DNA of 30,759 nucleotides from Rickettsiales bacterium (GCA_031288035.1 JAITSG010000019.1:1-30759), one strand, 5' to 3'. Positions 3,284 to 22,316 are shown, numbered from the stretch's first letter. The notes: generated by a model not told the origin, from the letters alone. A program made the numbers and translations.

Positions 3284-3308
3284 TTTTTCCTTCCGGTCAC
3301 GATGAGCC

Positions 3309-3337
3309 ATTCTAACCCGCCCGTGAAATTTTTGCAA
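3309..3337 (-). promoter_or_regulatory. sigma70-like promoter of the slt-rnhB-birA operon
   Basis: Minus strand TTGCAA-17 nt-TAGAAT; back-to-back with the plus-strand promoter at 3346. Confidence 0.65.
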
Positions 3338-3345
3338 TTTTTAAC

Positions 3346-3374
3346 TTGACATCTGAGAACAAATAGCGTATATT
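3346..3374 (+). promoter_or_regulatory. sigma70-like promoter heading the phage-like cluster
   Basis: TTGACA (3346-3351)-17 nt-TATATT (3369-3374). Confidence 0.75.
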
Positions 3375-3385
3375 GCGGCTCAAGT

Positions 3386-3416
3386 CAACGGGGAAAGTGT
3401 GCCCGTTGTTTTTTTT
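3386..3416 (+). terminator. Promoter-proximal intrinsic terminator
   Basis: CAACGGG-9 nt loop-CCCGTTG followed by T8, starting about 5 nt after the predicted transcription start. Confidence 0.75.
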
Positions 3417-3455
3417 GTCGCTTTGCGGCGGATTTTTTCATTTTTGGAAACGGAC

Positions 3456-3863
3456 ATGGCGACTGGTCTTTATACGGCGCGCAACGCGTCGGCATTGGCC
3501 CGCGCTTTGTTCGCGACGCAAAAGGACGCGCCGCCTATCCTCCGCCTCGCCATCGCGCATGCGGCCGTCAACCGGTATCTGTACGAGCGAGACCTCGATC
3601 CCGGCGCGGACTTCGTGTCCGTCGTCGCGGACGAAGAGCTGTTCGAATGCTGGGGCGACCCGCGGTCTTTCTCGGAATGCACGGGCGACGCCCGGTACGG
3701 CGAGTGCTTCGCCGCGGCCAAGGGCGTCCTGAGCGGCGGCCTCGGCGATCCGACGAATTGCTCGCGCCGGTTCCATGCGCGGTTCCGCAGCCCTGTATGG
3801 GCCATAGGGCTCGTCCCCGCCGCGCGCATAGGCGGATATCTTTTCTATAACAACTGCGACTAG
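3456..3863 (+). CDS. Cell-wall hydrolase SleB/CwlJ (Hydrolase_2)-like protein, catalytic Glu apparently absent
   Basis: Pattern LARAL...AIAHAAVNR...FECW...DPT...FH...P.WA...IG..LFY matches the family. ALFATQKD stands where GEARGE is normally found. Confidence 0.75.
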   Translation: MATGLYTARNASALARALFATQKDAPPILRLAIAHAAVNRYLYERDLDPGADFVSVVADEELFECWGDPRSFSECTGDARYGECFAAAKGVLSGGLGDPTNCSRRFHARFRSPVWAIGLVPAARIGGYLFYNNCD

Positions 3864-3878
3864 CTGAAAGGAAGCACG

Positions 3879-4448
3879 ATGAAGAAAGAAAACAAGGACG
3901 GGGATTCCGTTTTGGATCTGGCTCTCGCCACGGACGGGGATTCGGCCGGGAGTTGCGGCCCGGACATAAAGGACGGCATGGCGGAGGCGTGCGAGGCCAT
4001 TGCCGGGCGGCTCAGGGCCTCCGGCATGACGCCCGGCCAGATCAAGCTGGTGTGCGATCTGGCCGCCGAGGTCCTGGAGCCGGCGATAGAAAGCGTGGCC
4101 GAGCATTACCGCGCCTTGCGCGAGCTGGAAAAGCTCGAGGAGTATTTCGGCGGCGAGGAGCGCTTCGACGAGATAAGCCGCCAGATAATCTCGTGGGGAA
4201 GGAAGAGCCTTCCGTCGGACGTCTTTGAGACTCTCGGCACCACGTGCCAGGGCGTGATAGCGCTGTACGGCATGATGCAGAGCTCCGAGCCTGTGGTCGC
4301 GAACGTCGCCGGCGCGAAGCCCGGCGCGATGACCGAGGCAAAGCTCCGCGACATGATGCGCGATCCGCGTTATTGGCGCGACAACGACGCCGAGTTCGTT
4401 AAATCCGTCGGCGATGGTTTCAGGAAATTGTACGACCGCCGGGCGTGA
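3879..4448 (+). CDS. Capsid assembly scaffolding protein (T7 gp9-like)
   Basis: Acidic helical protein ending in LRDMMRDPRYWRD...GFRKLY, as in podovirus scaffold C-termini; upstream of the capsid gene; GAAAGGA RBS. Confidence 0.7.
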   Translation: MKKENKDGDSVLDLALATDGDSAGSCGPDIKDGMAEACEAIAGRLRASGMTPGQIKLVCDLAAEVLEPAIESVAEHYRALRELEKLEEYFGGEERFDEISRQIISWGRKSLPSDVFETLGTTCQGVIALYGMMQSSEPVVANVAGAKPGAMTEAKLRDMMRDPRYWRDNDAEFVKSVGDGFRKLYDRRA

Positions 4449-4463
4449 TTTTTAAATTGCCTC

Positions 4464-4492
4464 TTGCGTATATGGGAAACATATGTTAAAAT
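4464..4492 (+). promoter_or_regulatory. sigma70-like promoter of the histone-like gene
   Basis: TTGCGT-17 nt-TAAAAT; the spacer contains a short inverted repeat ATATG-5 nt-CATAT. Confidence 0.65.
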
Positions 4493-4525
4493 GAAAGCGT
4501 CTTTTGTTTAACATAGGAGAGAGAA

Positions 4526-4798
4526 ATGTTCAAAAGCATAATAAAGAAGACGACCGCGAAGCCGGCTGCGAAGAAGCCCGCCGTGAAGAAGGCCGTCAAG
4601 AAGCCCGCGGTGGCTGCGAAAAAGCCGGTGAAGAAGGTGGCGGCCAAGAAGCCCGTCGCCAAGAAGTCGGTGACCGTGAAAAAGGCTCCCGCGAAGAAGA
4701 AGCCCGTCGCGAAGAAGGCTTCGGTGAAGGTTTCCGTCGCGAAGAAGCCCGTTGCCAAGAAGGCGCCGGCTAAAAAAAAAGTAGCGAAAAAGAAATAA
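4526..4798 (+). CDS. Histone H1-like Lys/Ala/Pro-rich DNA-binding protein
   Basis: 36 of 90 residues are Lys, none acidic, repeated KKPAAKK/KKPVAKK; strong AGGAGA RBS. Confidence 0.85.
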   Translation: MFKSIIKKTTAKPAAKKPAVKKAVKKPAVAAKKPVKKVAAKKPVAKKSVTVKKAPAKKKPVAKKASVKVSVAKKPVAKKAPAKKKVAKKK

Positions 4799-4845
4799 GT
4801 TCTGTTCGTTTGCTAAGGGGGAATCCCGCCGCGGCCAAGGACATT

Positions 4846-5370
4846 GTGTTCAAGAGCCGGCTGGCGGGATTTTTCTACGCCAGGGCCAAGGGCATCCTGC
4901 ACGTGTGGATGACCATAGTCGTGGTGGGATCGTTTTTGAACATATTCTCCAAGAAGATAATCGCCTATCGCGAGCTCGCGTTCACCATGTCGCCGATAGA
5001 GGTGATGTCCATAGAGCTGATGAACAGCATAGCCGTCATGATGCTCGAGTTGTTCCTGCCCGTCCTGTTGGTTGTTTCGGCGGTGAAGGTGCTTATAGCG
5101 CGCAGGTACGGCGTGTATCTTCCGCAGAAGCTGCGCGACGGGACTAAGTACAGGCTGCGCGTTTCGCTCCTTCTTGGCGGCCTTCTCGGGCTGTGGTTCT
5201 TCGCGTACACGAACACGTTCGCCGGATCGGCCGGCCTCGGGATATTGCTGCGCTCGTCCGCCGAGGTGGCCGTGATGCTGTTCGCGTGCTCGTTCCTGAC
5301 GTTCGCGATGCTGGCCGGCCTGATGCACGGCTTTTCGCCCATACTCTCTCTCAAGGCGCGAAGGAAATAG
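4846..5370 (+). CDS. Multi-pass membrane protein of unknown function
   Basis: Four to five hydrophobic segments. Probable GTG start at 4846 after AAGGA (ORF track starts at 4810). Confidence 0.65.
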   Translation: MFKSRLAGFFYARAKGILHVWMTIVVVGSFLNIFSKKIIAYRELAFTMSPIEVMSIELMNSIAVMMLELFLPVLLVVSAVKVLIARRYGVYLPQKLRDGTKYRLRVSLLLGGLLGLWFFAYTNTFAGSAGLGILLRSSAEVAVMLFACSFLTFAMLAGLMHGFSPILSLKARRK

Positions 5371-5397
5371 TTTCGGCGTTTCGTCGGAAACACACCG

Positions 5398-5425
5398 TCC
5401 CCCGGTTCGTCCGGGGGATTTTTTT
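5398..5425 (+). terminator. Intrinsic terminator immediately upstream of the capsid gene
   Basis: TCCCCCGG-TTCGT-CCGGGGGA then T7; ends 17 nt before the capsid ATG. Confidence 0.75.
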
Positions 5426-5442
5426 AACTGAAAGGAAAAAAT

Positions 5443-6267
5443 ATGAGCATAGAAGATTCGTTTATCAAGCAGTTCGAGGCCGAAGTGCACCTTGCTTTCC
5501 AGCAGACGGGGACCAAGCTCAGGTCGACCGTCCGCACGAAGACGGGTGTGAAGGGCTCCAGCACCACGTTCCAGAAGATCGGGACCGGCGCCGCGGCCAC
5601 GAAGACCAGGAACGGCGCGGTCCCGGTGATGAGCCTGGAGCACGCTCCGGTCGAATGCGTCCTTACCGACTATTACGCCGGCGACTATATAGACGAGCTT
5701 GACGAGATCAAGGTGAATATAGACGAGCGCCGCGTGGTGGCCTCGGCCGGCGCGTACGCCCTCGGGCGAAAGTCGGACGAGCTTATCGTGGCCAAGCTCG
5801 CCTCCGCGACGCAGTCCGTTCCTGTCGGGACTTCCGGCATGACGAAGGCGAAGGTCCTCGCCGCGCTCGAGATCATAAACGGCGCGGACGTCCCCGACGA
5901 CGGCCAGCGCTTCGGCATAGTCGGCGTCCACCAGTGGAACGAGCTCTTGAACATGCCGGAATTTTCGAGCGCCGAATACGTGGGCGATTCGTATCCTCTG
6001 CTCAAGGGCACGGAATCGAGGAAGTGGATGGGCGTCAACTGGATAATGTACAACGGCCTTCCGTTCGCCTCCGGCAACCGCACGTGCTTCGTCTATCACA
6101 AGAACGCCGTGGGCCACGCGAGCGGCTCCGAGGTCAAGACCGACATATCGTGGGTCGGCGAGAAGGCCGCGCATTTCGTGTCCAGCTCCATGAGCCAGGG
6201 CGCGGCGCTTATCGACGTCTCCGGCGTGGTGAAGATAGTGTGCGACGACGACGCCGCGATAGCTTAA
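5443..6267 (+). CDS. Major capsid protein (podovirus-type)
   Basis: N-terminus FIKQFEAEVHLAFQQ.G.KLR.TV, then D..D.LD..K...D.R...A.ALGRK.D..I, typical of HK97-fold T7-like capsids; 274 aa; context of scaffold and tail genes. Confidence 0.88.
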   Translation: MSIEDSFIKQFEAEVHLAFQQTGTKLRSTVRTKTGVKGSSTTFQKIGTGAAATKTRNGAVPVMSLEHAPVECVLTDYYAGDYIDELDEIKVNIDERRVVASAGAYALGRKSDELIVAKLASATQSVPVGTSGMTKAKVLAALEIINGADVPDDGQRFGIVGVHQWNELLNMPEFSSAEYVGDSYPLLKGTESRKWMGVNWIMYNGLPFASGNRTCFVYHKNAVGHASGSEVKTDISWVGEKAAHFVSSSMSQGAALIDVSGVVKIVCDDDAAIA

Positions 6268-6275
6268 GCCGGCAA

Positions 6276-6333
6276 GCCCGCCCGCCCGCCGTTTCCACGG
6301 CCGTTTTCCGGCCCCGGGCGGCGGGCGTTTTTT
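6276..6333 (+). terminator. Intrinsic terminator after the capsid gene
   Basis: GCCCGCCCGCCCG pairs with CGGGCGGCGGGC (one bulge), followed by T6; position analogous to T7 Tphi. Confidence 0.6.
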
Positions 6334-6349
6334 ATCGAAAGGATTTCAC

Positions 6350-6586
6350 ATGGACTCGAAGAACCTGTCCGTTCTCTCGTATTCGAACGGATTCACGCTT
6401 TGGCACTACAAGACCGACGACGACAGGGCGGCCGTCATGGGGCCCGGGTATTTTTCCGTCATGGCGGGCGTTTTCAATCCCGGCGACGCGATGTTCGTCA
6501 CGTATTGCGGCGGCAGGCGCAGGTTTTCCGAGCTTGCCGTCATGGACGGCTCCGGCGGCGAGGTGACCCTCGTCGGTATGAGATAG
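6350..6586 (+). CDS. Small phage protein, possible capsid decoration protein
   Basis: 78 aa, NLSVLSYSNGFTLWHYKT...GYF...GD, which I recall following capsid genes in related alphaproteobacterial loci (unverified); GAAAGGA RBS. Confidence 0.55.
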   Translation: MDSKNLSVLSYSNGFTLWHYKTDDDRAAVMGPGYFSVMAGVFNPGDAMFVTYCGGRRRFSELAVMDGSGGEVTLVGMR

Positions 6587-6594
6587 GGGGACTT

Positions 6595-7122
6595 ATGAAC
6601 AGTATAGAATTGTGCTCGCAGGCGCTCGTGAAGATAGGGGCGGCCCCGATAGTGTCGTTCGACGACGGCTCTCTGGAGGCTTCGGTCGCGTCGTACGCGT
6701 ATCCGCTTGCGAAAAGAAAGCTGCTTTCCAGCTTCGCGTGGGGCTTCGCCACGAAATCGGCGAGGCTGAGCAGCCTTTCCGGCGGGGCGTTCGCCGTTCC
6801 GAACGATTTCCTGCGCGCGATATGCGTGCGCCCGAAATGTGCGTACGCGATAACGGGCCACAAGCTCGCGGCCGACGCTGATGCGATAGAGCTCGACTAC
6901 GTCGCCGACGTTGGCGAGGAGCTTTTCCCGCCGCTTTTCGAAAGCGCGCTGATGTATTCGCTTGCGGCGGAGTTTGCGATGTCGCTTTTGGATGACAGCG
7001 CCAGGTACAACCTTATGGAGCATACCGCGCTCTTGGAATTGCGCGAGGCTAGGTTCCAGGACAGCAGCCAGAAGAGCGCGAAGTCGATAAAGGGCTTCCC
7101 TCTCGTCGATGCGAGGAAATGA
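6595..7122 (+). CDS. Tail tubular protein A / head-tail adaptor (T7 gp11-like)
   Basis: LCSQAL.KIGA.PI.S.DDGS.EA......Y......LL....W.FA...P.DFLR...FPPLF..AL...LA.E; start moved to the ATG at 6595. Confidence 0.82.
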   Translation: MNSIELCSQALVKIGAAPIVSFDDGSLEASVASYAYPLAKRKLLSSFAWGFATKSARLSSLSGGAFAVPNDFLRAICVRPKCAYAITGHKLAADADAIELDYVADVGEELFPPLFESALMYSLAAEFAMSLLDDSARYNLMEHTALLELREARFQDSSQKSAKSIKGFPLVDARK

Positions 7123-7123
7123 C

Positions 7124-9007
7124 ATGTACAAGACGACGTTCACGAACACGGCGTTCTCCAGGGGCGAGATATCCCCGCACCTTCTGGCGCGCGGCGATTT
7201 CGAATCGTACAGGAGCTGCGCGATGAAGCTCAGGAACTTCCGCGTGCTTCCGGTCGGAAGCATAAGGCGCCGCCCGGGCACGGTGTTCGTAGCCGAGCTT
7301 CCGGGCGAGGCGAGGCTTATCCCGTTCGCGTATTCGCAAAGCGATTCGTTCCTGCTCGCCTTTACGTCCGGCCGGATACTGGTGTACTCTTCGTCCGGCC
7401 GGAATGTGGGGGAGCTTTCAAGCCCGTTCATGCCGGAGCATTTCGCGAGGATATGCTATGCGCAGAAAGGGGGCGAGCTGTACCTTTCGCACCCGGACGT
7501 GCCGCCAGCCGTCATATCGTACGATCCGATTGGGGGTTCGTGGAGCGTGTCCGGATGGAATTTTTCGACCATGCCGTTTTCAGAGTTCCCGGAATTTTCC
7601 GGAATCTCGGTGAAGCCTAGCGGAACCGGCGGAAGCATAAGCCTGTCGTCGGGCGCGGATTTTTTCACGGGCGATATGGTCGGCATAGCGTTTCGCATAA
7701 ACGGCGGCGAGGTTAGGGTGTCCTCCGTGTCCTCTCCGGCCGTGGCGTCTGCGGAGGTGCTCAGGGCGCTGGATTCGGCCGCCGCCTGCGATGATTTCAC
7801 CGAGCAGGCGTTTTCCGCCCGCCGCGGATGGCCCTCCAGCATAACGTTCCACCAGGACAGGCTCGTCATAGGCGGCAGCGCGGGCATACCGAACCGCCTG
7901 TGGTTTTCGAAGACCGGCGATTACCTGAACTTCGACCTTGGCGCCGGCCTCGACGACGAGGCGATAGAGTTCAACATGCTCTCCGACCGCGTGAACGACA
8001 TAGCGGCGGTTTTTGCCGGCCGTCACCTTCAGGTGTTCACGGGCGATTCCGAATGGATGGTGAGCGGCTCGCCCTTGACTCCGACTAGCGTTATGATACG
8101 CGAGCAGACCAAGATAGGCTCCATGACCTCGCGCCTGATAAAGCCGGTGCTGGTCGAGGGCTCTACTATATTCGTCGCCAGGAACGGCAGGGAAATCCGC
8201 GAGTTTTACTACGGCGAGATAGAGGGCGGTTACCGTTCGGACGACCTTGTCGCGCTCTCCAGCCATCTTATGCAAGGCCCGGTGGAGCAGGAGTACGATG
8301 CCTCCGGCCGCATGCTTTATGTAGTGCAGGGCGACGGGAGCATGGCGGTGCTTTCACTGAACAAGGGCATGGACATAAATGCATGGTCGCATTACGAGAC
8401 CGCGGGCGAGTTCAAGTCCATAGCGTGCGTCGGCGGATCGGTGTACGTGGCCGTCCGGCGCGGCGGCAGGTGGATGGTCGAATATTTCTCGGACGACGTT
8501 GGGAGCGACTCGTCGCGCGTCGAAAATTTCGGCGTCCCTTCGTCCGTAATGCCGGGCCTGTCGCACCTGGAGGGCGGGGACGTCGTGGCCGTGGCGGACG
8601 ACTATGTGTTCGCGGGCCGCGTGGAGGGCGGAGTCTTCGAAGTTTCCCGTCCCGCCCGGAACATAAGGGTCGGCCTGCCGTTCTCGCACTGCTACTGCCC
8701 GCTGCCGGCTTTCGTCGGCCGCTCGCGTCCTCCGCGGGCGTCGAGGCTTCTGGAGCTGGTGGTGCGCGTGATCGACACTCCGCTTGTCGAGATAGACGTG
8801 GGCCGCGGCCCGCGGGCGTTCACGGGCGCGCGCTTCGGCGGTCCTGGGATTTTGGACTCGCCGCTCGCGTATTTCACCGGCGACGTGCGCGCGCACGCCT
8901 CGGGCCTAGTCCGCGGGTTCGACGTGCCCATGTTCAAGATAGAGGGCTCGCTCCCTCTTCCTGTGCACATTTTAAGCATAACGCAGACTGTTGAATGCGT
9001 AAGGTAG
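7124..9007 (+). CDS. Tail tubular protein B / nozzle (T7 gp12-like)
   Basis: N-terminal FSRGEISP.L..R.D..Y.....LRNF.V.P.G...RRPG; internal WPS..TFHQDRL and WFSKTGDY.NF; about 627 aa. Confidence 0.85.
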   Translation: MYKTTFTNTAFSRGEISPHLLARGDFESYRSCAMKLRNFRVLPVGSIRRRPGTVFVAELPGEARLIPFAYSQSDSFLLAFTSGRILVYSSSGRNVGELSSPFMPEHFARICYAQKGGELYLSHPDVPPAVISYDPIGGSWSVSGWNFSTMPFSEFPEFSGISVKPSGTGGSISLSSGADFFTGDMVGIAFRINGGEVRVSSVSSPAVASAEVLRALDSAAACDDFTEQAFSARRGWPSSITFHQDRLVIGGSAGIPNRLWFSKTGDYLNFDLGAGLDDEAIEFNMLSDRVNDIAAVFAGRHLQVFTGDSEWMVSGSPLTPTSVMIREQTKIGSMTSRLIKPVLVEGSTIFVARNGREIREFYYGEIEGGYRSDDLVALSSHLMQGPVEQEYDASGRMLYVVQGDGSMAVLSLNKGMDINAWSHYETAGEFKSIACVGGSVYVAVRRGGRWMVEYFSDDVGSDSSRVENFGVPSSVMPGLSHLEGGDVVAVADDYVFAGRVEGGVFEVSRPARNIRVGLPFSHCYCPLPAFVGRSRPPRASRLLELVVRVIDTPLVEIDVGRGPRAFTGARFGGPGILDSPLAYFTGDVRAHASGLVRGFDVPMFKIEGSLPLPVHILSITQTVECVR

Positions 9008-9023
9008 TTAAAAGGAGAATGAT

Positions 9024-9455
9024 ATGTCAACATCGAACGCCCTGCTGACGGGCTTTGATTTAGCGAAGAACACGGTCGACAAGAAGGCCGAGAAGGCCAA
9101 GTCCGACGCGGAGGCGAAGGCCAGGCTCGACAGCGAGGCCGCAAAGGACGCGATAGATTCGGAAAAGATAAGGGCCAAGGTCTCCCTGTTCGCGCGCGAC
9201 CGCACGAATCTTCTGAACGCGAAGGTCGCGGCCAACCGCGCCCGCATGGCGGCCAGCGGGCTTGACGGCACGTCGAACAGCATCCGGGCGTTCTTCGCCG
9301 CGCTTCAGAGTGCCGCGAACGAGGAGATAAGCGGCAACGCGTACTTCGCCGACCTGGATTTGGCGAAATACGACCTGAACGACCCGTCCGCCGTTTCGAG
9401 CATACTCGCCGCAGCGCAGGGGAAAAGCAAAAAGAAAAAAGTAGTGGGGTTCTGA
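9024..9455 (+). CDS. Putative internal virion (ejection) protein, gp14-like
   Basis: Ala-rich helical protein with a RARMAASGL motif, lying after tail tube B; AAAGGAG RBS. Confidence 0.5.
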   Translation: MSTSNALLTGFDLAKNTVDKKAEKAKSDAEAKARLDSEAAKDAIDSEKIRAKVSLFARDRTNLLNAKVAANRARMAASGLDGTSNSIRAFFAALQSAANEEISGNAYFADLDLAKYDLNDPSAVSSILAAAQGKSKKKKVVGF

Positions 9456-9456
9456 A

Positions 9457-9897
9457 ATGCCGTATGAAAAAGAAAACACCTCGGTATCGTATAAAGCCGA
9501 CGGCTCGTCCGTGGAGTTCGAGTTCCCGTTTAGGATCTTCCGGCCGCAGGACGTGAAGGTCGAGATAGACGACGATCCGGTCGAGGAAGGGTTTTCCGTC
9601 GCAGGGGACAAGGTGGTGTTCGCCGCGCCTCCGCCGGCCGGATCGGACATAAGCATAAGGCGGTTCCTCGATTTCACGCGCATAGGCGCGTTCACGGCCG
9701 GCGGCCCGTTCAGGGCCGAGGATGTAAATACCGAGTTCGAATACACCCGCGCGTGCATCCGCCAGATATTCGACACGGATCTGGCCGACGCGGTTGCGTT
9801 CGTTGAGGATTGCCTGAGCGCCATAGAGGAAATATACGGCGAGCTGACCGACATATGGGGCGGCCAGCTCGACTGCGGAGGCTTGGCCGATGCCTAG
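9457..9897 (+). CDS. Stand-alone T7 gp17-type tail-fibre N-terminal adaptor domain
   Basis: Y.ADG....F.FPF..F...DV.V...V.F..PP..G..I.I.R.......F..G....A..LN.EF pattern; only 146 aa. Confidence 0.78.
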   Translation: MPYEKENTSVSYKADGSSVEFEFPFRIFRPQDVKVEIDDDPVEEGFSVAGDKVVFAAPPPAGSDISIRRFLDFTRIGAFTAGGPFRAEDVNTEFEYTRACIRQIFDTDLADAVAFVEDCLSAIEEIYGELTDIWGGQLDCGGLADA

Positions 9898-10501
9898 CGC
9901 AGCGGCCGATTCGTCGTTCGTTTCGTTCCTCGGGGGCTGGAACTCGCTTATGGGCTTGTCCACGCCCGCCCACCATGTCCGCATCGCGAGATGGCTCGAG
10001 CGCGTGTTCAAAAGCAGGAAGAGGCGCGGGCTCCTGCTGGCCTTCCGGGCGAGCGGCAAGTCGACTATAGTCGGCCTGTTCATAGGATGGCTGCTGCGCG
10101 AGGATCCGAATCTGCGCATTCTGGTCGTCGCGGCGGATTCCGTTCTGGCCAAGAAGATGGTGCGTAGCGCGAGGAGGATAATCGAGATGCACCCCGGCCT
10201 GGCCGTCATCCGCCCGGTCAGGAGGGTCGAATGGGCGGGCGGATGCTTTACGGTGGAGCGCGGCATGCCTTTGCGCGATCCAAGCGTGCTTGCCATGGGC
10301 ATAGGCGCGAACATTACGGGGAGCAGGGCGGACGTGATAGTGTGCGACGACGTGGAGGTTCCGAAGAACACTTCTACCGCGGCCAGGCGCGCGGAGTTGC
10401 GCGAAAAGCTCCTGGAGCTCGACTTCGTCCTCACTCCGGACGGCATGGAGGTTTTCATAGGGACCCCGCATGTCAAGGACACTATTTACCGTGTGCGATA
10501 G
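9890..10501 (+). CDS. Terminase large subunit, N-terminal ATPase half
   Basis: Walker A AFRASGKST, Walker B VIVCDDVE, motif C FIGTPH, then stop; GGAGG RBS 8 nt upstream. Confidence 0.88.
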   Translation: MPSAAADSSFVSFLGGWNSLMGLSTPAHHVRIARWLERVFKSRKRRGLLLAFRASGKSTIVGLFIGWLLREDPNLRILVVAADSVLAKKMVRSARRIIEMHPGLAVIRPVRRVEWAGGCFTVERGMPLRDPSVLAMGIGANITGSRADVIVCDDVEVPKNTSTAARRAELREKLLELDFVLTPDGMEVFIGTPHVKDTIYRVR

Positions 10502-10870
10502 CCGGCTTGCGTTCGCGGTCGTTCGTCCTGTTCGCGGCTTTCGCCAAGTGCGTGCGGCGCTGAACTGCGCGCGGCAACATTTGCGAAGCATCATGCCCTT
10601 GTGCGGGGAGGGCATCCGGCCGGAAGCGCATCCGCAGGAGCTGTTTTTCGATTCTCGCGCGGACAACGGCCCTTGCCGCATGGCCGGCGTTCCTCGTTTG
10701 CGCGGACAACGGCCTTCGTTTTGCGAACCTATGTCCCTCATTTCGCTCGGACGCCGCCCGTCATTCGCGCAAGATGGCAGATTATATTCCCAGCCATAGG
10801 CGGCAAGAAAGGCCAAAACAGGCCAGAATCCGCCGATTTTTAGACAACAAAGAAATATTGTATAATTTTA

Positions 10871-10900
10871 TTGACAAACGAATTATTTTTCGTATAGAAT
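10871..10900 (+). promoter_or_regulatory. sigma70-like promoter, sRNA candidate 1
   Basis: TTGACA (10871) with TATAGA at 16 nt or TAGAAT at 18 nt spacing, in an AT-rich context. Confidence 0.65.
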
Positions 10901-10906
10901 GCAGCC

Positions 10907-11013
10907 ATTCCGCGAAAGCGGTACGAGTTTGCCGGAACGACCCCTCATTTCGGCAATAACCCCCGGGTCATTCCCTCCTTATTTCTCTCTCTCCTCTTGA
11001 TCCGGGGGATTTT
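10907..11013 (+). ncRNA. Small RNA candidate 1 (three hairpins, CU-rich loops)
   Basis: CCGC-GAAA-GCGG; 9-bp stem with loop CGACCCCTCA; 11-bp stem CCCCCGGGTCA/TGATCCGGGGG with a 27-nt pyrimidine loop, then ATTTT; no credible ORF. Confidence 0.55.
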
Positions 11014-11067
11014 CAAAGGGCCGCGGCCTTGCGCCGAAAGCCGCGCGGACATGCGTCAAGTTTTTCC

Positions 11068-11096
11068 TTGCATACCTGGCTGTTGCCTGCTAGAGT
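11068..11096 (+). promoter_or_regulatory. sigma70-like promoter with extended -10
   Basis: TTGCAT-17 nt-TAGAGT, with TG at 11088-11089. Confidence 0.5.
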
Positions 11097-11108
11097 TGGA
11101 TTCGTACG

Positions 11109-11136
11109 GACCGGATTGCCGGTCGGGTATTTTTTT
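11109..11136 (+). terminator. Intrinsic terminator
   Basis: GACCGG-ATTG-CCGGTC, then GGGTA and T7. Confidence 0.6.
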
Positions 11137-11337
11137 ATGGGAAAGTTGGCGTTGCGAATCGCATGCTGACGAATCGCGTTTTTTGATGCGTCCGGCCCGT
11201 AAAAAAGAATCAATTTTTAGGCAGTTAGGGTGTGGAATATAAATATTGAATTAATTTTTTAGATTTTGTATTCGTTTGATTTTACTGTGATTTCGGTTGG
11301 AATCATATACGAAACTTCGGTTTTGTGTCGAAACCGC

Positions 11338-11366
11338 TTGACTTTTCAAAACCTATCGCCTATGAA
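11338..11366 (+). promoter_or_regulatory. sigma70-like promoter, sRNA candidate 2
   Basis: TTGACT-17 nt-TATGAA; loss of the -7 T is common in alphaproteobacterial promoters. Confidence 0.55.
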
Positions 11367-11372
11367 TCACTA

Positions 11373-11480
11373 TGCGAGGCGATGGAATTGTTCTCTCAAT
11401 AACAAAACCTCCGGATTATTCCCTGTTGTATTCCTTTTCTCTCCTTTCCTCCTTCTCTCCTTACAACAGGGAGTTTTTTT
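11373..11480 (+). ncRNA. Small RNA candidate 2 (terminator stem with CU-rich loop)
   Basis: 13-bp stem ATTCCCTGTTGTA/TACAACAGGGAGT enclosing a 31-nt pure pyrimidine loop, followed by a T-tract. Confidence 0.55.
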
Positions 11481-11482
11481 AT

Positions 11483-11511
11483 TTGTACGGCCTTTGATTT
11501 TGTGGTATAAT
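11483..11511 (+). promoter_or_regulatory. sigma70 promoter, apparently leaderless, of the secreted protein gene
   Basis: TTGTAC-17 nt-TATAAT with extended TG; ATG follows 7 nt later; no SD sequence. Confidence 0.7.
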
Positions 11512-11518
11512 TGGGTCG

Positions 11519-13474
11519 ATGAGGAAAGGAATCTGTCATATACTGGCGTTTTTGCTGGCCCTGTCGGCCTCCGCTGGCGCCGCGACCCAGAAAAAGGCCG
11601 CCAGATCCGCGGGCAAGACCGGCGGGCACAAGGCCAAGAGGGTCAAGAAGAAGGAAACGACCACACAGCGGCTCGTTGGCGTTCCGAACGCTCCGTCAGA
11701 GCCCGGCGCCACTGCGACCAGCCCGCCAGTGTTTCAGAAGTATTTCGAATATCCGAACATAACGTTCTATAACGGCCAGAGCTATCCGCTTCAAAGCTTC
11801 ATGACTCCTTCGGTGGTTCAGGCATATCAGGCCTACGGCTCCGATTCGCGGGGGGAAAGGCTGTGCTTTTCGTGCCTGACGCTCCAGGGGACCAGCTCCG
11901 GCGGCCTTCCGCCCGAAACCGTGTCCGCGACCGCGGCGCAGAAGGCCTGTACTCCGCTAAAGGCTGGATATTCGTATGTTTTCGTCGTTGACCAGAACGC
12001 GACCGCCACGTGCGGCATGTCCGGGACCTTGACGATGGAGGACGCGAACAAATCCGTCCGCGGCCAGATGCCTATAACGTTTTCGATAAACACGGCCGCC
12101 CTGTCCGATCCGAACAACTTCGACGATCCGGACAAGACGTTCGACCAGCTGTTCGCCAATTTCGACAAGGTCAGGAACGGGATAAAGAGCGCGTATGAGA
12201 ATGTGAACGAGAAGTGCCGCGCGGCCAAGAAAGGGGTTAGCTCCCTGAAGGCCGCGGTTTCCGGCGCCACGACCCTTTCCGGCATAGGCATAGCGACTAG
12301 CGCGCTCGGCACCGGGGCGAGCGCCTGGAGCACGATTAACACTAAGAAGATAAAGGGCGGCCAGGAGGATCTGGCCAACGCCGACAAGGCGATACGCGAC
12401 GCGCTTGCGGTGTTGGACGCGGAGGCTGTTAAGATAGCCGAGGGTGACGGGAGGACAGCTTGGAAAGAATCTGAGAAATACGCCGCTATCCTTGAAGGCG
12501 GCCGGTGGGAGCCGGACGATTCGTCCGCGACCGAGGGGAAGATAAAGCTGTTTAAGAGCAAGAGTGTCGATGAAAAAGCCCAGGCCGACCATACCATTAA
12601 CTTCACCCAGGCGGTGAAGGAGTTGGAGAAGAATAGGAATGCCGAGCCATTGGCAGAGAATGATATTATTCGGCAATCCTCTCTAGTTACAACAGCCGCC
12701 AACAACGGAACAAAGCTTTGTGATGTCGATATTACTGGCAAGACCATCGCAGATAAGGATATCCAAGAGGTTAGATCTGATCTGAACAGTTCCGTTGACG
12801 ATTTTAGAAACAACGGAACCGGAGCTGCGGAAATGGCGGCTGGTGAAAAATACGACCTGCTTATAAAGGAGTGCGATACCGCAAAAGATAACGCGAGTAA
12901 AGCGGTTGGCAAGACTGATTCGCAATCTATAAGGAGTAGAGAAAATTTTGAAAGAAATTATGGGGAGGGATTTGACTGCAAGCCTGATCCGGATCAATCC
13001 CCTGGTGCAAATGTTCCTGTCAAAAAAGCAGCTTTGCAGAAAGCTCGTTATAATTTGACCGCAGCTGGCGTTGCTCTTACTCCTGAACAAAAAAGCAAAA
13101 TAAGATGCGTGGAAGACGCTATTGCCAAGCTCAACGAAGTGCAAAACGGCACCGGCTTCAACGAGAAGCTTGCCAAGCTTAGGACTGCCGAGGCCGCTGC
13201 GAAGTCGTTCGAGGATACGAAGGAGGACGCCCAGAGCGCGCGCAACCTGTCGTTCGGGCTCGACATGGGCGCGTCGGCCGCCGGTCTTGCCACGACCGGC
13301 TTGTCCGCCTTCGGTCTGGGCAAGGGCGCGGAAGCGGCAGGGGACGTGGACAAGGCGGCCGAGCAGGTCAAGGCCTGCGCCGACGCGTCGGCCGGATTGA
13401 CCAAGGCCCTGTCCGACTACGACGAATACGTCCGCTCGCTCGAGGAGGAGGAAGAGGAGGATTTCATATGGTAA
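11519..13474 (+). CDS. Large secreted helical protein with two Gly/Ala-rich hydrophobic helices
   Basis: Signal peptide (ILAFLLALSASAGA); hydrophobic segments LSGIGIATSALGTGASAW and LSFGLDMGASAAGLATTGLSAFGLG; acidic tail. Confidence 0.8.
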   Translation: MRKGICHILAFLLALSASAGAATQKKAARSAGKTGGHKAKRVKKKETTTQRLVGVPNAPSEPGATATSPPVFQKYFEYPNITFYNGQSYPLQSFMTPSVVQAYQAYGSDSRGERLCFSCLTLQGTSSGGLPPETVSATAAQKACTPLKAGYSYVFVVDQNATATCGMSGTLTMEDANKSVRGQMPITFSINTAALSDPNNFDDPDKTFDQLFANFDKVRNGIKSAYENVNEKCRAAKKGVSSLKAAVSGATTLSGIGIATSALGTGASAWSTINTKKIKGGQEDLANADKAIRDALAVLDAEAVKIAEGDGRTAWKESEKYAAILEGGRWEPDDSSATEGKIKLFKSKSVDEKAQADHTINFTQAVKELEKNRNAEPLAENDIIRQSSLVTTAANNGTKLCDVDITGKTIADKDIQEVRSDLNSSVDDFRNNGTGAAEMAAGEKYDLLIKECDTAKDNASKAVGKTDSQSIRSRENFERNYGEGFDCKPDPDQSPGANVPVKKAALQKARYNLTAAGVALTPEQKSKIRCVEDAIAKLNEVQNGTGFNEKLAKLRTAEAAAKSFEDTKEDAQSARNLSFGLDMGASAAGLATTGLSAFGLGKGAEAAGDVDKAAEQVKACADASAGLTKALSDYDEYVRSLEEEEEEDFIW

Positions 13475-14022
13475 GGCGCAAGGCAATCGTCGTTCCCGGC
13501 CGTCTCGCCGTTCCCGCGCGTGCGGGCGTGGCTATGGCCTGGTTTCTCGCGTTCTCGGCCCCCGCGTTTTCCGCCGACGCGCGCATCACGGGGCCGAAGA
13601 AAAAGCTCGACGCCCAGATTGAGGCCCTGAACGCTGTTTCCCAGAAATGCCGTCCGAACAGCAAGGACATCTCGGATATTTCCGGCTCGCTGACCGCGGG
13701 CAATATCACGAACGCCGTCGCGATAGCCGGCGGCGGTACGGCCATGGTGACTAGCGGTATTTCCGTCTTCAAGGAATTCCAGTACAAGGGATTGCAGAAG
13801 AAAGATGAGCTGACGGACGAGGAAAAGAAGAAGATGGAGAAGACTACCGACGCGCAGGGCAAGCTCCGCCTCGCCTCCGCCATAGGTTCTGGCGTCGCCA
13901 CGGCCGGCAACACGGTTTCCACCCTCACGCTGAACAGCGCGGCTGGCAAGCTGGATAAGGCCCTGGAGTATTACGGCGGATGCTTCGATGCGCTCGAGGC
14001 CGTGGACACGACCGGCTGGTGA
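13468..14022 (+). CDS. Secreted protein, compact paralog of the upstream gene
   Basis: Signal-peptide-like segment AMAWFLAFSAPAFSA; shared motifs KCR, two Gly-rich helices, DAQ..R and DKA.E...C.DA. Confidence 0.75.
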   Translation: MVRRKAIVVPGRLAVPARAGVAMAWFLAFSAPAFSADARITGPKKKLDAQIEALNAVSQKCRPNSKDISDISGSLTAGNITNAVAIAGGGTAMVTSGISVFKEFQYKGLQKKDELTDEEKKKMEKTTDAQGKLRLASAIGSGVATAGNTVSTLTLNSAAGKLDKALEYYGGCFDALEAVDTTGW

Positions 14023-14178
14023 TGGTCCCGTCGTTCCGGCGCAGGCCGGTTCAGTCACCCCGGCGCAGGCCGGGGCCCCCTGTTCGGTATAGTTGCATAT
14101 TCTTTGCCGCGGGATGGCTGCCTTTCGGCTTCGCTTTGTTTCGCCGGGGCAAGCCGCCGGCATGATAACGGCCTTTAC

Positions 14179-14205
14179 TCCCCGCCTCCCGCGGGGATTT
14201 TTTTT
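14179..14205 (+). terminator. Intrinsic terminator immediately upstream of the portal gene
   Basis: TCCCCGC-CTCCC-GCGGGGA then T8; the portal RBS begins 12 nt later. Confidence 0.72.
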
Positions 14206-14230
14206 ATTTCAACGACAGAAAGGAGAAGCA

Positions 14231-15625
14231 ATGGACATGTTTGCCGTATATGAGAAATACAAGCGCGCATTCGAGGAGCGGAGCCGGTTCGAGCCGGTAT
14301 GGGACGACTGCAGGAGGTATTCCCAGCCGGGCGCGGCCGATGAGTGCGTGTTCGATTCTACCGCCGCGAATGCGGTGGACAACCTGGCCTCGAGCCTGCT
14401 GGCCCAGCTTACTCCGCCGTGGTCGCGCTGGTTCGGGCTCAGTTCCGGCTCTCCGGAGGCCGCGGGCGCGGTAGCGGAGGCCGAGCGCGTGCTCCAGAGC
14501 CACATGGAGCGCAGCAATTTTTATGTCGAGGCGCACCAGTGCTATCTCGACCTGGTGACGTTCGGCACGGCGGTCATGCTGTTCGAGGAGGCTCCGGTCG
14601 GCTGGCCGAGCGCGTTCAAGTTCTCGGCCGTTCCGTTCGAGGAGGTCGCGCTCGGCTCGCAAGACGAGGTATTCCGCCGCACTGTTTTGTCCCGCGATAT
14701 TATGCGCGCGAAGTTTCCGTCGCTCCCGCTGCCCGAGGGCAAGGATTCGTTCACGGTGGTCGAATCCTCGGCTCCGCGCATGACGGCGAGCGGCCCGCAG
14801 GGGTTCGGCTATATGGTTTTCGCCGACGTGGACGGATCGCCGCTCTTGATATCCGAGGGCGTGTTCGGCATGTCGCCGTTCATAGTCTTCCGCTGGATGA
14901 AGATGCCCTCCGAGGTCTACGGCCGCAGCCCGATGATGAAGGCGCTTCCCGACGTCAAGACCGCGAACAAGGTTGTCGAGCTTGTCCTCAAGAACGCGTC
15001 CATGTCCGTCTCCGGCGTGTGGATGGCCGACGACGACGGCGTGATGAACCTGGACAACATAACGCTTTCCCCCGGAACGATAATACCAAAGGCCGTGGGA
15101 TCCAGCGGCCTCACGCCGCTCAGGACCGGCGCGGATTTCAACGTAAGCCAGCTCGTGCTTTCCGAGCTTCGGTCGAACATAGAGCGCTGCCTCCTGGCCG
15201 ACCGGCTGTCGGATTTTAGGGGGGCGCGCATGACCGCGACCGAGGTTGTGGAGCGCAGCGAGTCCGTCTCTCGGGTGCTCGGCGCGACGTACGGGCGGCT
15301 GCAGAGCGAGTTCCTGACCATGGTCATCCTGCGCGCGGTGGGCATACTGAAGCGCCGGGGCGAGATAGGCCCTCTGTTCGTCAACGGTCGCGAGGTGGAT
15401 TTGAAATACCAATCGCCTCTGGCCGGCGCCCAGGCCGTGCGCGACGCCGAGAACGTCCTCGGCTGGATAAGGGCCATGGGCGACCTCGGCGGCGGCGCGC
15501 TGGAGCGCGTGGACAGGGACGCCGTTGCGAAATACCTGTCGCGCGTATTCGGGATAAGCGGCGACTTCACGGCCGATGCCGCTTCTCCCGGCGCGGGGAG
15601 CCCGTCAACGGGCCCGGAGGACTAG
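14231..15625 (+). CDS. Head-tail connector / portal protein (T7 gp8-like)
   Basis: FDSTA..AV.NLAS.L...LTPP...WF.L; DL.TFGTA; RW...PSEVYGRSP; TATEV.ER; GRLQ.EF; start at the ATG after GAAAGGAG. Confidence 0.92.
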   Translation: MDMFAVYEKYKRAFEERSRFEPVWDDCRRYSQPGAADECVFDSTAANAVDNLASSLLAQLTPPWSRWFGLSSGSPEAAGAVAEAERVLQSHMERSNFYVEAHQCYLDLVTFGTAVMLFEEAPVGWPSAFKFSAVPFEEVALGSQDEVFRRTVLSRDIMRAKFPSLPLPEGKDSFTVVESSAPRMTASGPQGFGYMVFADVDGSPLLISEGVFGMSPFIVFRWMKMPSEVYGRSPMMKALPDVKTANKVVELVLKNASMSVSGVWMADDDGVMNLDNITLSPGTIIPKAVGSSGLTPLRTGADFNVSQLVLSELRSNIERCLLADRLSDFRGARMTATEVVERSESVSRVLGATYGRLQSEFLTMVILRAVGILKRRGEIGPLFVNGREVDLKYQSPLAGAQAVRDAENVLGWIRAMGDLGGGALERVDRDAVAKYLSRVFGISGDFTADAASPGAGSPSTGPED

Positions 15626-15627
15626 CC

Positions 15628-16458
15628 ATGGAAGACCGGGATGATCCGCCGTTTTTGGAGGGGTTCGACCTGCTGAAGATTCCGGTGGTCGAGGACGGCC
15701 GGCCCGTGTGGCCGGAAAAGTTCCCGCTTGATAAGATAGAGCGGGTGCGCAGGTCTGCCGGCCCGCGGAAGTTCATGAGCCAGATGATGCTCGCCGTTCC
15801 GGACGGGGACGGCGGCCGGCTGTCCCCGGAAAGCCTGAAATTCTATTCGGCCGAGATAGAGGCGAGCGAGCGCAACCATGTCGTTTCGCATTCCGTCGCG
15901 GGCAGGCCGCTGGCCGGATATTCGTGCTGGTGGGATCCGTCGTTCGGATCGGCCAAGGGCGACGCGAGCGTCGTTGCCTATGTCCTTGTGGGCTGCGGAG
16001 GCGAGCGGTACCTGCACGACGTCGAGTATATCGCGGTGGACGATTCCGCGCGCTCGGCCGAGATACAGTGCGCCCGCATAGCCGGGTTCCTCGCCCGCCA
16101 TTCGATACGGACTATCCGGGTCGAGGACAACGGGCTCGGCAAGTTTCTGCCGGAGATACTGCGCGCCCGCACCGGCGCGGCGGTGATAGCGGAGCGTTCC
16201 AAGGCGCCGAAGGAGAAGAGGATACTCGATTCGTTGGAGGTCGCGGCGTCGGCCGGGCTGCTCTATGTTCACGAAAGGGTGAGGTCTGCGCGCTGGATGG
16301 ACGAATTTATGGGCTGGACGCCGGGCGGAGGTTCGCCGGACGACGGACTTGACGCCGCGGCCGGCGCCATGTCCGCCCCGTTCGCCAAGTTCCCGTTCGC
16401 GCTGGTCCGGCGCCGTTTCCCGCCGCGAGGCAAGACATACAAGGTAAGATGGAGGTGA
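15628..16458 (+). CDS. Terminase large subunit, C-terminal RNase H-like nuclease half
   Basis: Begins with the inter-domain region (PFLEGF..L.IP...G..VWPE.F...GPRKF.SQM), then WWDPSFG..KGDAS, VEDNG and PDDGLDA; GGAGG RBS 7 nt upstream. Confidence 0.85.
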   Translation: MEDRDDPPFLEGFDLLKIPVVEDGRPVWPEKFPLDKIERVRRSAGPRKFMSQMMLAVPDGDGGRLSPESLKFYSAEIEASERNHVVSHSVAGRPLAGYSCWWDPSFGSAKGDASVVAYVLVGCGGERYLHDVEYIAVDDSARSAEIQCARIAGFLARHSIRTIRVEDNGLGKFLPEILRARTGAAVIAERSKAPKEKRILDSLEVAASAGLLYVHERVRSARWMDEFMGWTPGGGSPDDGLDAAAGAMSAPFAKFPFALVRRRFPPRGKTYKVRWR

Positions 16459-16539: not shown

Positions 16540-17382
16540 ATGTCCAAGAAATATCTGATTGTTTTTTGTGGATTATTTCTGATAATCGCCGGCGTTGCGA
16601 TTCGGTTTCTTACCCGCAATTCTGCAAAGCCGGATGTTGCCATAGTGCCGGCCGTTGTTCCCTCCGCGCCGGAAAAGGTAGCTGGCAAGGGCACTCAGAT
16701 ATCGGCCGTGACCGCGGACAAGGTCCTGTCCATAAAGGTTTCCGCGCCGAAATACAAGACGACTCTGGGCGTGCATTATGCGTACGAGGGCGAAGCCGCC
16801 GCGCCGAAGCCCCGGCCGAAGGCCAAGGACAAGCTGGACGGGACCAGGATCTCTTGCGCCGGCCTCGATTGCGGCAGGCCGCGCTCGCCCAAGGCCGAGG
16901 CCAGGCTGGAGGCGAACGTGCGCGCCAAGGCAAAGGCCAGGGATTCCGCCCGCGCCGCCCGCTCCGCTTCACTGAAGGCCGCGAAGAAATCCGCCACGCC
17001 CACGCCCTCGGCGACCCGCGCCTCGTCCGGCGTTTCCGTTTCCGTCGCGAAGGGCAAGGCCGCCTCCGCAGCCCGGCCCGTTCTTCCGTCGCAGATTTGC
17101 GGGAATTGCAAGTGGAAGAAGGGTTCGGTCGTCATAACCAAGAATACCGTCGGAGAGCTCAAGTGCAGCGGCGTCATCCTGGGCGACCTGTACATCGCGA
17201 ACATCGACGGGCTGAAGCTTCCCGAGAAGATGGTCGTCATGGGCAGCGTGTACGTGTACAATTCCGTCCGTCTGTCCTTCGGGCCGAAGTCCTATGTGCG
17301 CGGGAACATATTTGTCCGCGGCAGGAGTTCGATAAAGACGCTGTCCAAGGGGACGCTTCTCGGCGGGCAGATATTCGTATAG
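16540..17382 (+). CDS. Membrane-anchored protein with Pro/Ala/Lys linker and C-terminal beta-solenoid-like repeats
   Basis: N-terminal TM (YLIVFCGLFLIIAGVAI); repeats ILGDLYI, VMGSVYV, VRGNIFV, LGGQIFV; GAAAGGA RBS. Confidence 0.75.
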   Translation: MSKKYLIVFCGLFLIIAGVAIRFLTRNSAKPDVAIVPAVVPSAPEKVAGKGTQISAVTADKVLSIKVSAPKYKTTLGVHYAYEGEAAAPKPRPKAKDKLDGTRISCAGLDCGRPRSPKAEARLEANVRAKAKARDSARAARSASLKAAKKSATPTPSATRASSGVSVSVAKGKAASAARPVLPSQICGNCKWKKGSVVITKNTVGELKCSGVILGDLYIANIDGLKLPEKMVVMGSVYVYNSVRLSFGPKSYVRGNIFVRGRSSIKTLSKGTLLGGQIFV

Positions 17383-22257: not shown

Positions 22258-22316
22258 ATGGCCATGATACCATAAAAAGGCTTCCTTTTGAATAAGAATT
22301 ATCATAAAATCGCGGT

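Follow-up and report, generated by a model that had tools for sequence, protein, structure and literature searches.

We analyzed a stretch of 30,759 nucleotides from a Rickettsiales bacterium (GCA_031288035.1 JAITSG010000019.1:1-30759; hereafter the window, to which coordinates refer unless another locus is named), in which a series of plus-strand genes at 3346-16458 encodes head, tail and DNA-packaging proteins of the T7 type. The results support the view that an ancient T7-like (HTVC010P/T7-type) podovirus left this module behind as a remnant, which has been domesticated by the host, is inherited vertically and is kept by selection. Judging from its genes, the module probably specifies a particle system resembling gene transfer agents (GTAs), a reading that we hold with moderate confidence. 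Domestication rather than an active prophage had been proposed in a preliminary description of the window, and the distribution of the module, the congruence of its tree with that of the host and the ratios of non-synonymous to synonymous substitution rates (dN/dS) all favor this proposal. The source genome (0.81 Mb, 92% completeness) was obtained from a termite-gut metagenome, and the relatives of the locus belong to Candidatus Enterousia and uncultured gut Alphaproteobacteria.

Conservation of the module in the order Rs-D84

Enterousia has been placed in the GTDB order Rs-D84, the whole of which is genome-reduced and probably dependent on other cells, phage genes being unmentioned (PMC12306168). 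The genomes of this order have about 0.5-1.3 Mb. Among those at least 85% complete, a search with the capsid profile identified the capsid gene in 243 of 260 genomes (211 of 224 high-quality ones), which represent 23 of 24 genera and six of six families; a collection of species genomes contains at least 383 stretches encoding a capsid relative. Instead of being patchy at the strain level, the distribution is near-universal in the order.

Synteny, one of the tests proposed in the preliminary description, is likewise conserved: the order scaffold, capsid, small protein, gp11, gp12, (fiber N-terminal domain), TerL-N is constant in 80 further species, TerL-N and TerL-C being the two parts of the large terminase (TerL; see below). 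The arrangement after TerL-N varies: in Enterousia it is followed by TerL-C and then the portal; in the family of the window, by the portal and then TerL-C; and in three other families TerL-C follows TerL-N, with the portal further away. The retention of the module in an order that has lost nearly every non-essential gene argues for a real cellular function.

Vertical descent, selection and integration into the host

To describe the descent of the module, we used a tree of concatenated capsid, gp12, portal, TerL-N and TerL-C from 27 genomes. Every GTDB family is monophyletic in this tree, the label changes being as few as they can be, and 17 of its 24 bipartitions are common with the RpoB tree (label permutations: mean 0.14, maximum 2; patristic r=0.88). 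The two trees are therefore congruent.

The dN/dS ratios were calculated by the Nei-Gojobori method in ten species pairs for scaffold, capsid, small protein, gp11, gp12, TerL-N, portal and TerL-C. They range from 0.015 to 0.43 across all these genes, with dS partly saturated in the more distant pairs, and thus indicate purifying, not neutral, evolution; in the closest pair the module ratios are 0.06-0.18 vs 0.03 for rpoB. Pseudogenes in relatives, a further point raised in the preliminary description, proved to be rare. Internal stops were found in one of 27 checked genomes (G024; locus L140, family f2), in gp12 and the fiber N-terminal domain, and reflect either decay or assembly errors, while stops in TBLASTN matches lie almost exclusively at the match ends. 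The GC content of the module follows that of rpoB in 43 genomes of 30-70% GC (r=0.985), with a mean difference of 0.9 points.

In Enterousia, the module encloses an essential host gene. A 3.4-kb gap between TerL-N and TerL-C (L011, genome G021, 7099-10430) contains three genes on the opposite strand: dnaB, a 224-aa gene and a gene for a protein with two XRE-type helix-turn-helix domains, which may regulate the cluster. This dnaB is the sole DnaB_C match in two genomes, one of them 100% complete and the other a single contig. The Enterousia capsid gene is covered by contigs from rumen and sheep-gut metatranscriptomes (for example, 1161 nt, depth 24.7, 86% identity), at a depth comparable to that over dnaB, which is suggestive of expression. 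For the organism of the window itself no RNA was found, the matches coming only from the source termite-gut DNA run. Five genomes of the order were searched for the RcGTA-type capsid (PF05065) without a match, the Caulobacter control being positive, so that the module is the only capsid-type element detected in these five genomes.

Large terminase encoded by two genes

TerL, previously described as one intact open reading frame (ORF), consists of two genes in the window, one for the ATPase and the other for the nuclease (Table 1). They lie 5.1 kb apart, with an insert and the portal gene between them, and the start of TerL-N is overlapped by the fiber gene. Relative to an unsplit homolog of 493 aa, the break falls just past GTPH..IY, at about residue 203, and TerL-C starts about ten residues further on. 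The motifs are intact in both products: Walker A (GKS; G56-K57-S58), Walker B (DD.E; D153-D154-x-E156) and G191-T192-P193-H194 in TerL-N; W102-D103-P104, D112, E166-x-N168-G169 and D238-D239-x-x-D242 in TerL-C. Every conserved TerL motif is invariant across the split and unsplit forms. The gene is split in all 93 of 93 loci of the order and forms a single ORF in all 13 of 13 outside loci holding both halves; the terminase of Rs-D84 is thus homologous to the single-chain gp19-type TerL, but is made from two genes. When the complex of TerL-N and TerL-C was predicted, the docking score was 0.90 vs 0.01 for the best control (a mark attained for 58 of 80 solved complexes and for two of 110 mismatched pairs). 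A large terminase that is naturally divided into an ATPase chain and a nuclease chain would be useful for studying the mechanics of packaging motors.

Head and tail proteins

The genes of T7-like morphogenesis found in the module are those for a gp8 portal, a gp9 scaffold, a gp10-type capsid, a gp11 adaptor, a gp12 nozzle and a gp17 N-terminal domain. Of the T7-like ORFs that had been listed as intact, the scaffold, capsid, small head protein, gp11, gp12 and portal are so, but TerL is divided, and the fiber has been cut to a 146-aa adaptor domain. The capsid is the most conserved module gene, with 54-76% identity across the order. The 175-aa gp11-type adaptor has no matches among the Pfam and PHROG sequence families; its identification rests on the AlphaFold2 model (pLDDT 91), which matches podovirus adaptors: among the best Foldseek matches are the Carin-1 adaptor (8ck1_E; E 3.3e-12, template modeling score (TM) 0.81), KP32 TTPA and T7 gp11 (7box_M; TM 0.74). 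It is 31% identical to the ortholog in phage Hodr (see below). The helical 143-aa protein encoded after gp12 is, by its position, a candidate internal or ejection protein.

The genes that interrupt the module had been described as unrelated to it. At least one of them, the Lys-rich gene between scaffold and capsid, is a conserved part of the cluster: it recurs in 64 of the 67 loci whose flanks are long enough, among them those of families f1 and f4. The corresponding region of another locus (L043, 9380-9757) is covered very deeply in rumen metatranscriptomes (depths of 934, 272 and 186); its AAG-rich repeats make the mapping non-specific.

A lysin homolog and missing phage functions

The first gene of the cluster, overlooked in the preliminary inventory, which contained no lysis gene, encodes a homolog of SleB-type cell-wall hydrolases (Atlas feature score 0.97, structure TM 0.81). 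In its family, 12 of 16 members match PF07486 (best 9.6e-22), and the family profile matches SleB (4F55) at 1.9e-6. The cluster therefore includes a gene of the lysis type, derived from a lysin. An alignment of the motif YGE(A/S)RGE, whose Glu we take to be catalytic from what is known of SleB and lytic transglycosylases, shows Thr in place of this Glu in the window. It is also replaced in the aligned members of the same family and in two of three aligned Enterousia sequences, whereas families f5 and f6 and the homologs outside the order retain it.

Several phage functions were sought by homology. All ORFs of Hodr were compared with the source genome: matches were confined to capsid, gp11, gp12, portal and the lysin tail and all lay on the contig of the window, and the ejection-protein queries gave none anywhere in the genome. 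T7-type RNA polymerase (PF00940) had no matches in five genomes, the control genomes being silent as well. Family searches (Pfam and PHROG) of the module ORFs and flanks matched no integrase, polymerase or primase, and no att-like direct repeats flanking the module were found, in agreement with the preliminary description.

The module outside Rs-D84

To see how far the module extends, we searched 301 evenly drawn alphaproteobacterial genomes, 298 of them outside Rs-D84, with the capsid profile. It matches 72 of the 301 genomes at E<=1e-5 and, outside Rs-D84, about 46 of 298 at E<1e-100; the latter belong to many families and have 0.9 to 6.5 Mb. Eighteen outside loci with GC of 38 to 70% were retrieved, most of which are recognizably the same module, with varying gene order and completeness. 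Their core order is capsid, small protein, gp11, gp12, fiber, TerL, hydrolase; in some, portal and scaffold precede the capsid.

A fuller form occurs in genome G307 (4.6 Mb), where the fiber has 359 aa and a Tail Collar domain, and a 111-aa protein (phrog_31793) is encoded before TerL. After TerL follow a 103-aa protein with a transmembrane helix and a coiled coil (phrog_29007) and the hydrolase, a pair that, by sequence, resembles a lysis cassette; beyond it lie genes for DUF952, dihydroorotate dehydrogenase and an EAL protein. In genome G374 (1.1 Mb), the module has 9 kb, with a MacAB-TolC pump and a polyprenyl synthase downstream. Both of these outside loci with annotated flanks contain structural genes only and have housekeeping neighbors. 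At the class level, 13 of 23 bipartitions are common to the module and RpoB trees (permutation maximum 3), and in both trees Rs-D84 is nested with G374, its sister, and then with G375.

The module is thus older than Rs-D84 and descends from one present in many alphaproteobacterial families. Rs-D84 carries a reduced, derived version with a split TerL, a truncated fiber and, in most members examined, a lysin without the catalytic Glu; also derived are the displacement of portal and hydrolase and the gain of the Lys-rich H1-like gene between scaffold and capsid. The domestication reading stands, with the change that the element extends beyond this lineage and is widespread in Alphaproteobacteria.

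A divergent lineage of capsid, gp11 and gp12 (L164, L172, L173 and L175, in genomes G530, G498, G343 and G566) is incongruent with the host tree, and TerL was not found on its loci. Its members may be genuine prophages of the same phage group.

Comparison with known phages and GTAs

The closest isolated phage is Pelagibacter phage EXVC031P Hodr, with 44% identity in the capsid (compared with 54-76% within the order) and 32% in the portal. The module shares with T7/HTVC010P-type podophages homologous scaffold, capsid, small protein, adaptor, nozzle, fiber N-terminal domain and portal genes in the same relative order. Unlike in T7 and Hodr, early, replication and RNA polymerase genes were not found, the fiber is truncated, TerL is split, and GC content and inheritance follow the host; Hodr carries proteins of 783 and 1247 aa after gp12, whereas the module has nothing comparable there. 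Because ejection, replication and integration genes were not found, the module probably does not qualify as a T7-like phage or prophage. A human fecal sequence of 5084 bp filed as "Bacteriophage sp." (MT838907.1) is closer to the window than any isolated phage (capsid 58% and portal 46% identical) and, by its sequence, may be a piece of the module from a bacterium rather than part of a phage.

The GTAs studied in Alphaproteobacteria descend from phages of the siphovirus type, as do RcGTA and its relatives, or, like BaGTA, are specific to one genus. The RcGTA type (Rhodogtaviriformidae: Rhodobacter capsulatus, Caulobacter, Dinoroseobacter) resembles the module in being a phage-derived cluster of head, tail and packaging genes of about 10-15 kb in the chromosome, with vertical inheritance across a large part of the class, purifying selection, associated lysis genes and available recipient Com machinery; replication and integration genes were not found in the module, as in RcGTA. 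Their ancestors are unrelated: the module has a PF19821 capsid, a gp8-type portal, a gp11/gp12 stub tail and a gp19-type TerL, as opposed to the HK97-type siphovirus set, and these differences in capsid, portal, tail and terminase place it outside the RcGTA family. Further differences are that no small terminase subunit (TerS) was recognized and that TerL is split in Rs-D84. The domesticated phage cluster BaGTA, which co-diverges with Bartonella, is restricted to this genus and linked to a run-off replication origin of phage descent. By description, the module resembles BaGTA in domestication and co-divergence with the host, but neither an origin of this kind nor a replication gene was found in it.

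FpGTA of Faecalibacterium has been called the first GTA-like element of podovirus-like morphology (PMC12946183), so short-tailed GTAs are no longer unprecedented. Compared by description, FpGTA and the module are both phage-derived, chromosomal and probably short-tailed DNA-packaging systems of gut bacteria; they differ in phylum, and packaging of host DNA was shown experimentally for FpGTA, whereas the module is class-wide, of the T7 type and characterized at the gene level. No description of a T7-type domesticated module in Alphaproteobacteria was found in the open-access full-text literature. At E<=1e-30 there are 3299 capsid clusters, and the 120 listed among them are named only "hypothetical protein" or "phage capsid protein".

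Possible mechanism and function

As in GTAs, structural and packaging genes lie in the chromosome, no replication or integration gene having been found with them, are inherited vertically and are under purifying selection. If the module serves DNA exchange in the manner of a GTA, scaffold, capsid and portal would build a procapsid under host control, on whose portal the ATPase and nuclease chains of the terminase would reassemble. The terminase would then fill the heads with host DNA, and in a sequence-independent manner, because no TerS is recognizable. The gp11 adaptor and the gp12 nozzle would seal the head as a stub tail bearing only the fiber adaptor. As proteins of the gp14-gp16 type are missing, DNA may be delivered only to the envelope and imported through ComEC and DprA of the recipient, as with RcGTA; ComEC was found in five of five and DprA in four of five reduced genomes tested, which is permissive for such delivery. 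The lysin without its Glu and the fiber without a receptor-binding part imply that release and adsorption in Rs-D84 differ from those of the ancestor or use genes elsewhere.

That the module is a decaying, functionless prophage remnant is very improbable. The split TerL, the truncated fiber, the displaced portal and the unrelated inserts could be taken as signs of decay, as could the failure to find replication, integration and TerS genes, the internal stops in G024 and the 17 of 260 genomes in which no capsid was found. Yet the remaining 243 strongly reduced genomes keep the capsid; almost all examined loci have intact module genes; dN/dS is low; module and RpoB phylogenies diverge in step, both among the six families and outside Rs-D84; and the catalytic motifs of both TerL halves are invariant. 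We rejected decay on the grounds of distribution, tree congruence and dN/dS. Mis-binned phage contigs as the source are contradicted by the embedded dnaB and by housekeeping flanks on long contigs. Hardly any credence can be given to an active mobile element, either a temperate T7-like phage or a capsid-forming satellite using functions encoded elsewhere. The capsid family does have phage relatives (Hodr, HTVC010P-type and Vibrio phages), and the divergent lineage of G530, G498, G343 and G566 may consist of true prophages, but the module is single-copy, fully matches the host in GC and follows it in phylogeny, contains the essential dnaB in Enterousia and comes without a detectable integrase or att repeats, and only four structural genes of Hodr match the genome, none outside this contig. 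A satellite of the capsid-forming phage-inducible chromosomal island (cf-PICI) type fits no better, as tail adaptor and nozzle are present, integrase and att repeats were not found and inheritance is vertical.

A selected, functional particle or sub-assembly with a role other than gene transfer is a serious, if rather unlikely, alternative. Such a role could be interference with infecting T7-like phages (by decoy or competing capsids or by the terminase), a killing or adhesion particle directed against partner cells, or, for a host-dependent way of life, compaction, storage or export of DNA involving the Lys-rich H1-like protein. It would account for the reduction in Rs-D84 of the parts that reach another cell (only a fiber adaptor, no ejection proteins found, a lysin without the catalytic Glu) alongside the strong constraint still seen in capsid, portal and terminase, and it agrees with the histone-like basic protein in most loci and with an order thought to depend on other cells (PMC12306168). 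Against it stand the fuller form in G307, where the Tail Collar fiber and the pair of a transmembrane protein and a SleB-type hydrolase are the equipment of a released, adsorbing particle, and the intact ATPase and nuclease of the terminase, which indicate DNA-filled heads. As to phage interference, no hallmark of a defense system was seen beside the module, no defense library having been searched.

The GTA-like reading has its own difficulties. The particle is here a prediction from genes, and the organisms are uncultured. In the lineage of the window the fiber has no receptor-binding domain, the lysin homolog has no canonical Glu (as in two of three Enterousia), and its transmembrane/coiled-coil partner (w103) was not found in the source genome or in Enterousia. 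No large ORFs for gp14-gp16-type ejection proteins follow gp12, remote homologs elsewhere being possible; the 783-aa and 1247-aa proteins of Hodr have no BLAST match in the source genome; and no TerS was recognized in the module. The predicted docking of the TerL halves may merely recall folds of single-chain TerL. RNA libraries can hold DNA, and the capsid contigs come from related species (86-95% identity); ComEC and DprA are widespread in bacteria. What Rs-D84 has lost leaves genuine scope for another role, and for this reason we regard a GTA-like system as the probable, not the certain, reading and another particle function as the lesser possibility. The hypothesis can be tested at the bench, since the unsplit form occurs in large, complete genomes of 1.9-6.5 Mb (G307, G310, G324, G355 and G365), whose bacteria are probably cultivable.

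A more far-reaching proposal, which we consider speculative and quite unlikely as a whole, is that the module represents another viriform lineage of Alphaproteobacteria besides RcGTA, domesticated independently, very ancient and similar to RcGTA in age and spread. This lineage would already have been present near the base of the class, then been lost many times and been re-tooled in Rs-D84 toward cell-associated DNA packaging. It might even be the structural half of the prophage behind the mitochondrial replication genes: in the hypotheses of Filee and Forterre and of Shutt and Gray, replication genes of a T7-like prophage (single-subunit RNA polymerase, primase-helicase and family-A DNA polymerase) are said to have been co-opted by mitochondria. 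The combination of a two-chain terminase, a fiber without receptor binding, a presumably inactive lysin and an added histone-like protein suggests such cell-associated packaging in Rs-D84 rather than a freely released transducing particle.

If the GTA-like reading or another selected function holds, the module would be a T7-type element separate from the studied GTAs, vertically inherited and selected, with a strongly similar capsid in roughly one in six sampled alphaproteobacterial genomes. This would change estimates of how frequent phage-derived DNA-packaging machines are in gut bacteria.

Layout of the locus and neighboring genes

The ORFs of the window were called by third-position GC and then scanned with PHROG and Pfam; the resulting features are listed in Table 1. 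The module is bounded by housekeeping genes, as originally proposed: the annotated flanks contain RNase HII, biotin ligase and Slt transglycosylase upstream and an ABC transporter, FtsA, FtsQ and RsmE downstream. Host-like GC holds for the module (0.57-0.63) except for the insert at 11-13 kb (0.51-0.53). A promoter scan yielded 16 sites vs 4.5 expected, with near-consensus promoter-like sites at 3346, 10871 and 16486. The Rfam scan of the window matched no families.

Table 1. Features of the module and its immediate surroundings in the window.
Feature	Position	Strand	Evidence and remarks
Promoter-like site TTGACA-17-TATATT (11/12) with hairpin and T-run elements	3346-3440	+	Predicted from scan/sequence; precedes first cluster gene
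SleB-type cell-wall hydrolase homolog (PF07486 family, endolysin-derived), 135 aa	3456-3863	+	Start ATG 3456
T7 gp9-type scaffold	3879-4448	+	PF05396 4.6e-12; kept in relatives
Lys-rich (40% K) histone-H1/HC2-like basic protein, 90 aa	4526-4798	+	PF07382 3e-8, under curated cut-off
186-aa protein	4810-5370	+	Position kept within the window's own family f1 (TBLASTN); no Pfam/PHROG matches
Terminator-like hairpin, 9 bp, 7 GC, T-run	5397-5419	+	Immediately before capsid ribosome-binding site (RBS)
Major capsid protein, HK97 fold, T7/HTVC010P-type	5443-6267	+	PF19821 1.3e-71; phrog_3437 4.5e-73
Small head-associated protein	6263-6586	+	Weak phrog_18004 1.5e-4; kept in order and class; follows capsid as in phage Hodr
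gp11-type tail adaptor (tail tubular protein A), 175 aa	6595-7122	+	AlphaFold2 and Foldseek
gp12-type tail nozzle (tail tubular protein B)	7109-9007	+	phrog_376 1.1e-110
Helical Lys/Glu-rich protein, 143 aa	9024-9455	+	Position of T7 gp13/gp14; kept in f1, f6; no family matches
Tail fiber cut to gp17-type N-terminal tail-attachment domain, 146 aa	9457-9897	+	PF03906 6e-9
TerL-N, terminase ATPase core as own gene	9890-10501	+	T7 gp19 residues 19-211, aligned over the full length, E 3.2e-24
Variable insert between TerL halves	10502-14230		Promoter-like site 10871; two secreted-looking proteins
Secreted-looking 651-aa protein, low GC	11519-13474		Within insert
Secreted-looking 184-aa protein	13468-14022		Within insert
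gp8-type portal	14231-15625	+	PF12236 1e-94; RBS and ATG 14231 after terminator-like hairpin 14179-14197
TerL-C, terminase lid and RNase-H-like nuclease as own gene	15628-16458	+	phrog_38 positions 482-701, 6.3e-39
Membrane-anchored protein, conserved C-terminal beta-solenoid	16540-17382	+	TerL-C neighbor in four families; alignment

The insert between the TerL halves varies in size and content among genera, and its membership in the particle is only putative. The ORF-poor stretch after TerL-N (10839-11480), which has no Rfam matches, contains promoter-like sites at 10839, 10871 (11/12) and 11331 (minus strand) and several terminator-like hairpins. The 651-aa protein has homologs after TerL-N in a few relatives; its Atlas model is poor (pLDDT 0.45). 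We considered the 651-aa and 184-aa proteins as fiber or ejection proteins and left both unassigned: an Atlas search with the former gave only uninformative matches of low confidence, and neither has a Pfam or PHROG match. The Slt transglycosylase (1415-3337) was considered as a gp16-like internal virion protein and rejected, as only its SLT domain matches phage families and it is unlinked to the module in every relative; in size and layout it resembles a host enzyme of the Slt70 type. Downstream of TerL-C, the AlphaFold2 model of the membrane-anchored protein consists of a transmembrane helix and a beta-solenoid (C-terminal domain pLDDT 88-96). The 298-aa neighbor of TerL-C was not retained as a tail spike, this model having no significant fold match.

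Further downstream, 4-6 kb from the module, lie ftsA-like and ftsQ genes on the minus strand (20450-22305), followed on the plus strand by a gene for an ATP-dependent DNA ligase (PF01068 and PF14743; 23012-24301). The NAD-dependent LigA (PF01653) was not found in the source genome, at its completeness of 92%. Four relatives have LigA and no homolog of this ATP-dependent ligase, and by sequence LigA may have been displaced in this genus by an ATP-dependent ligase of the phage type.

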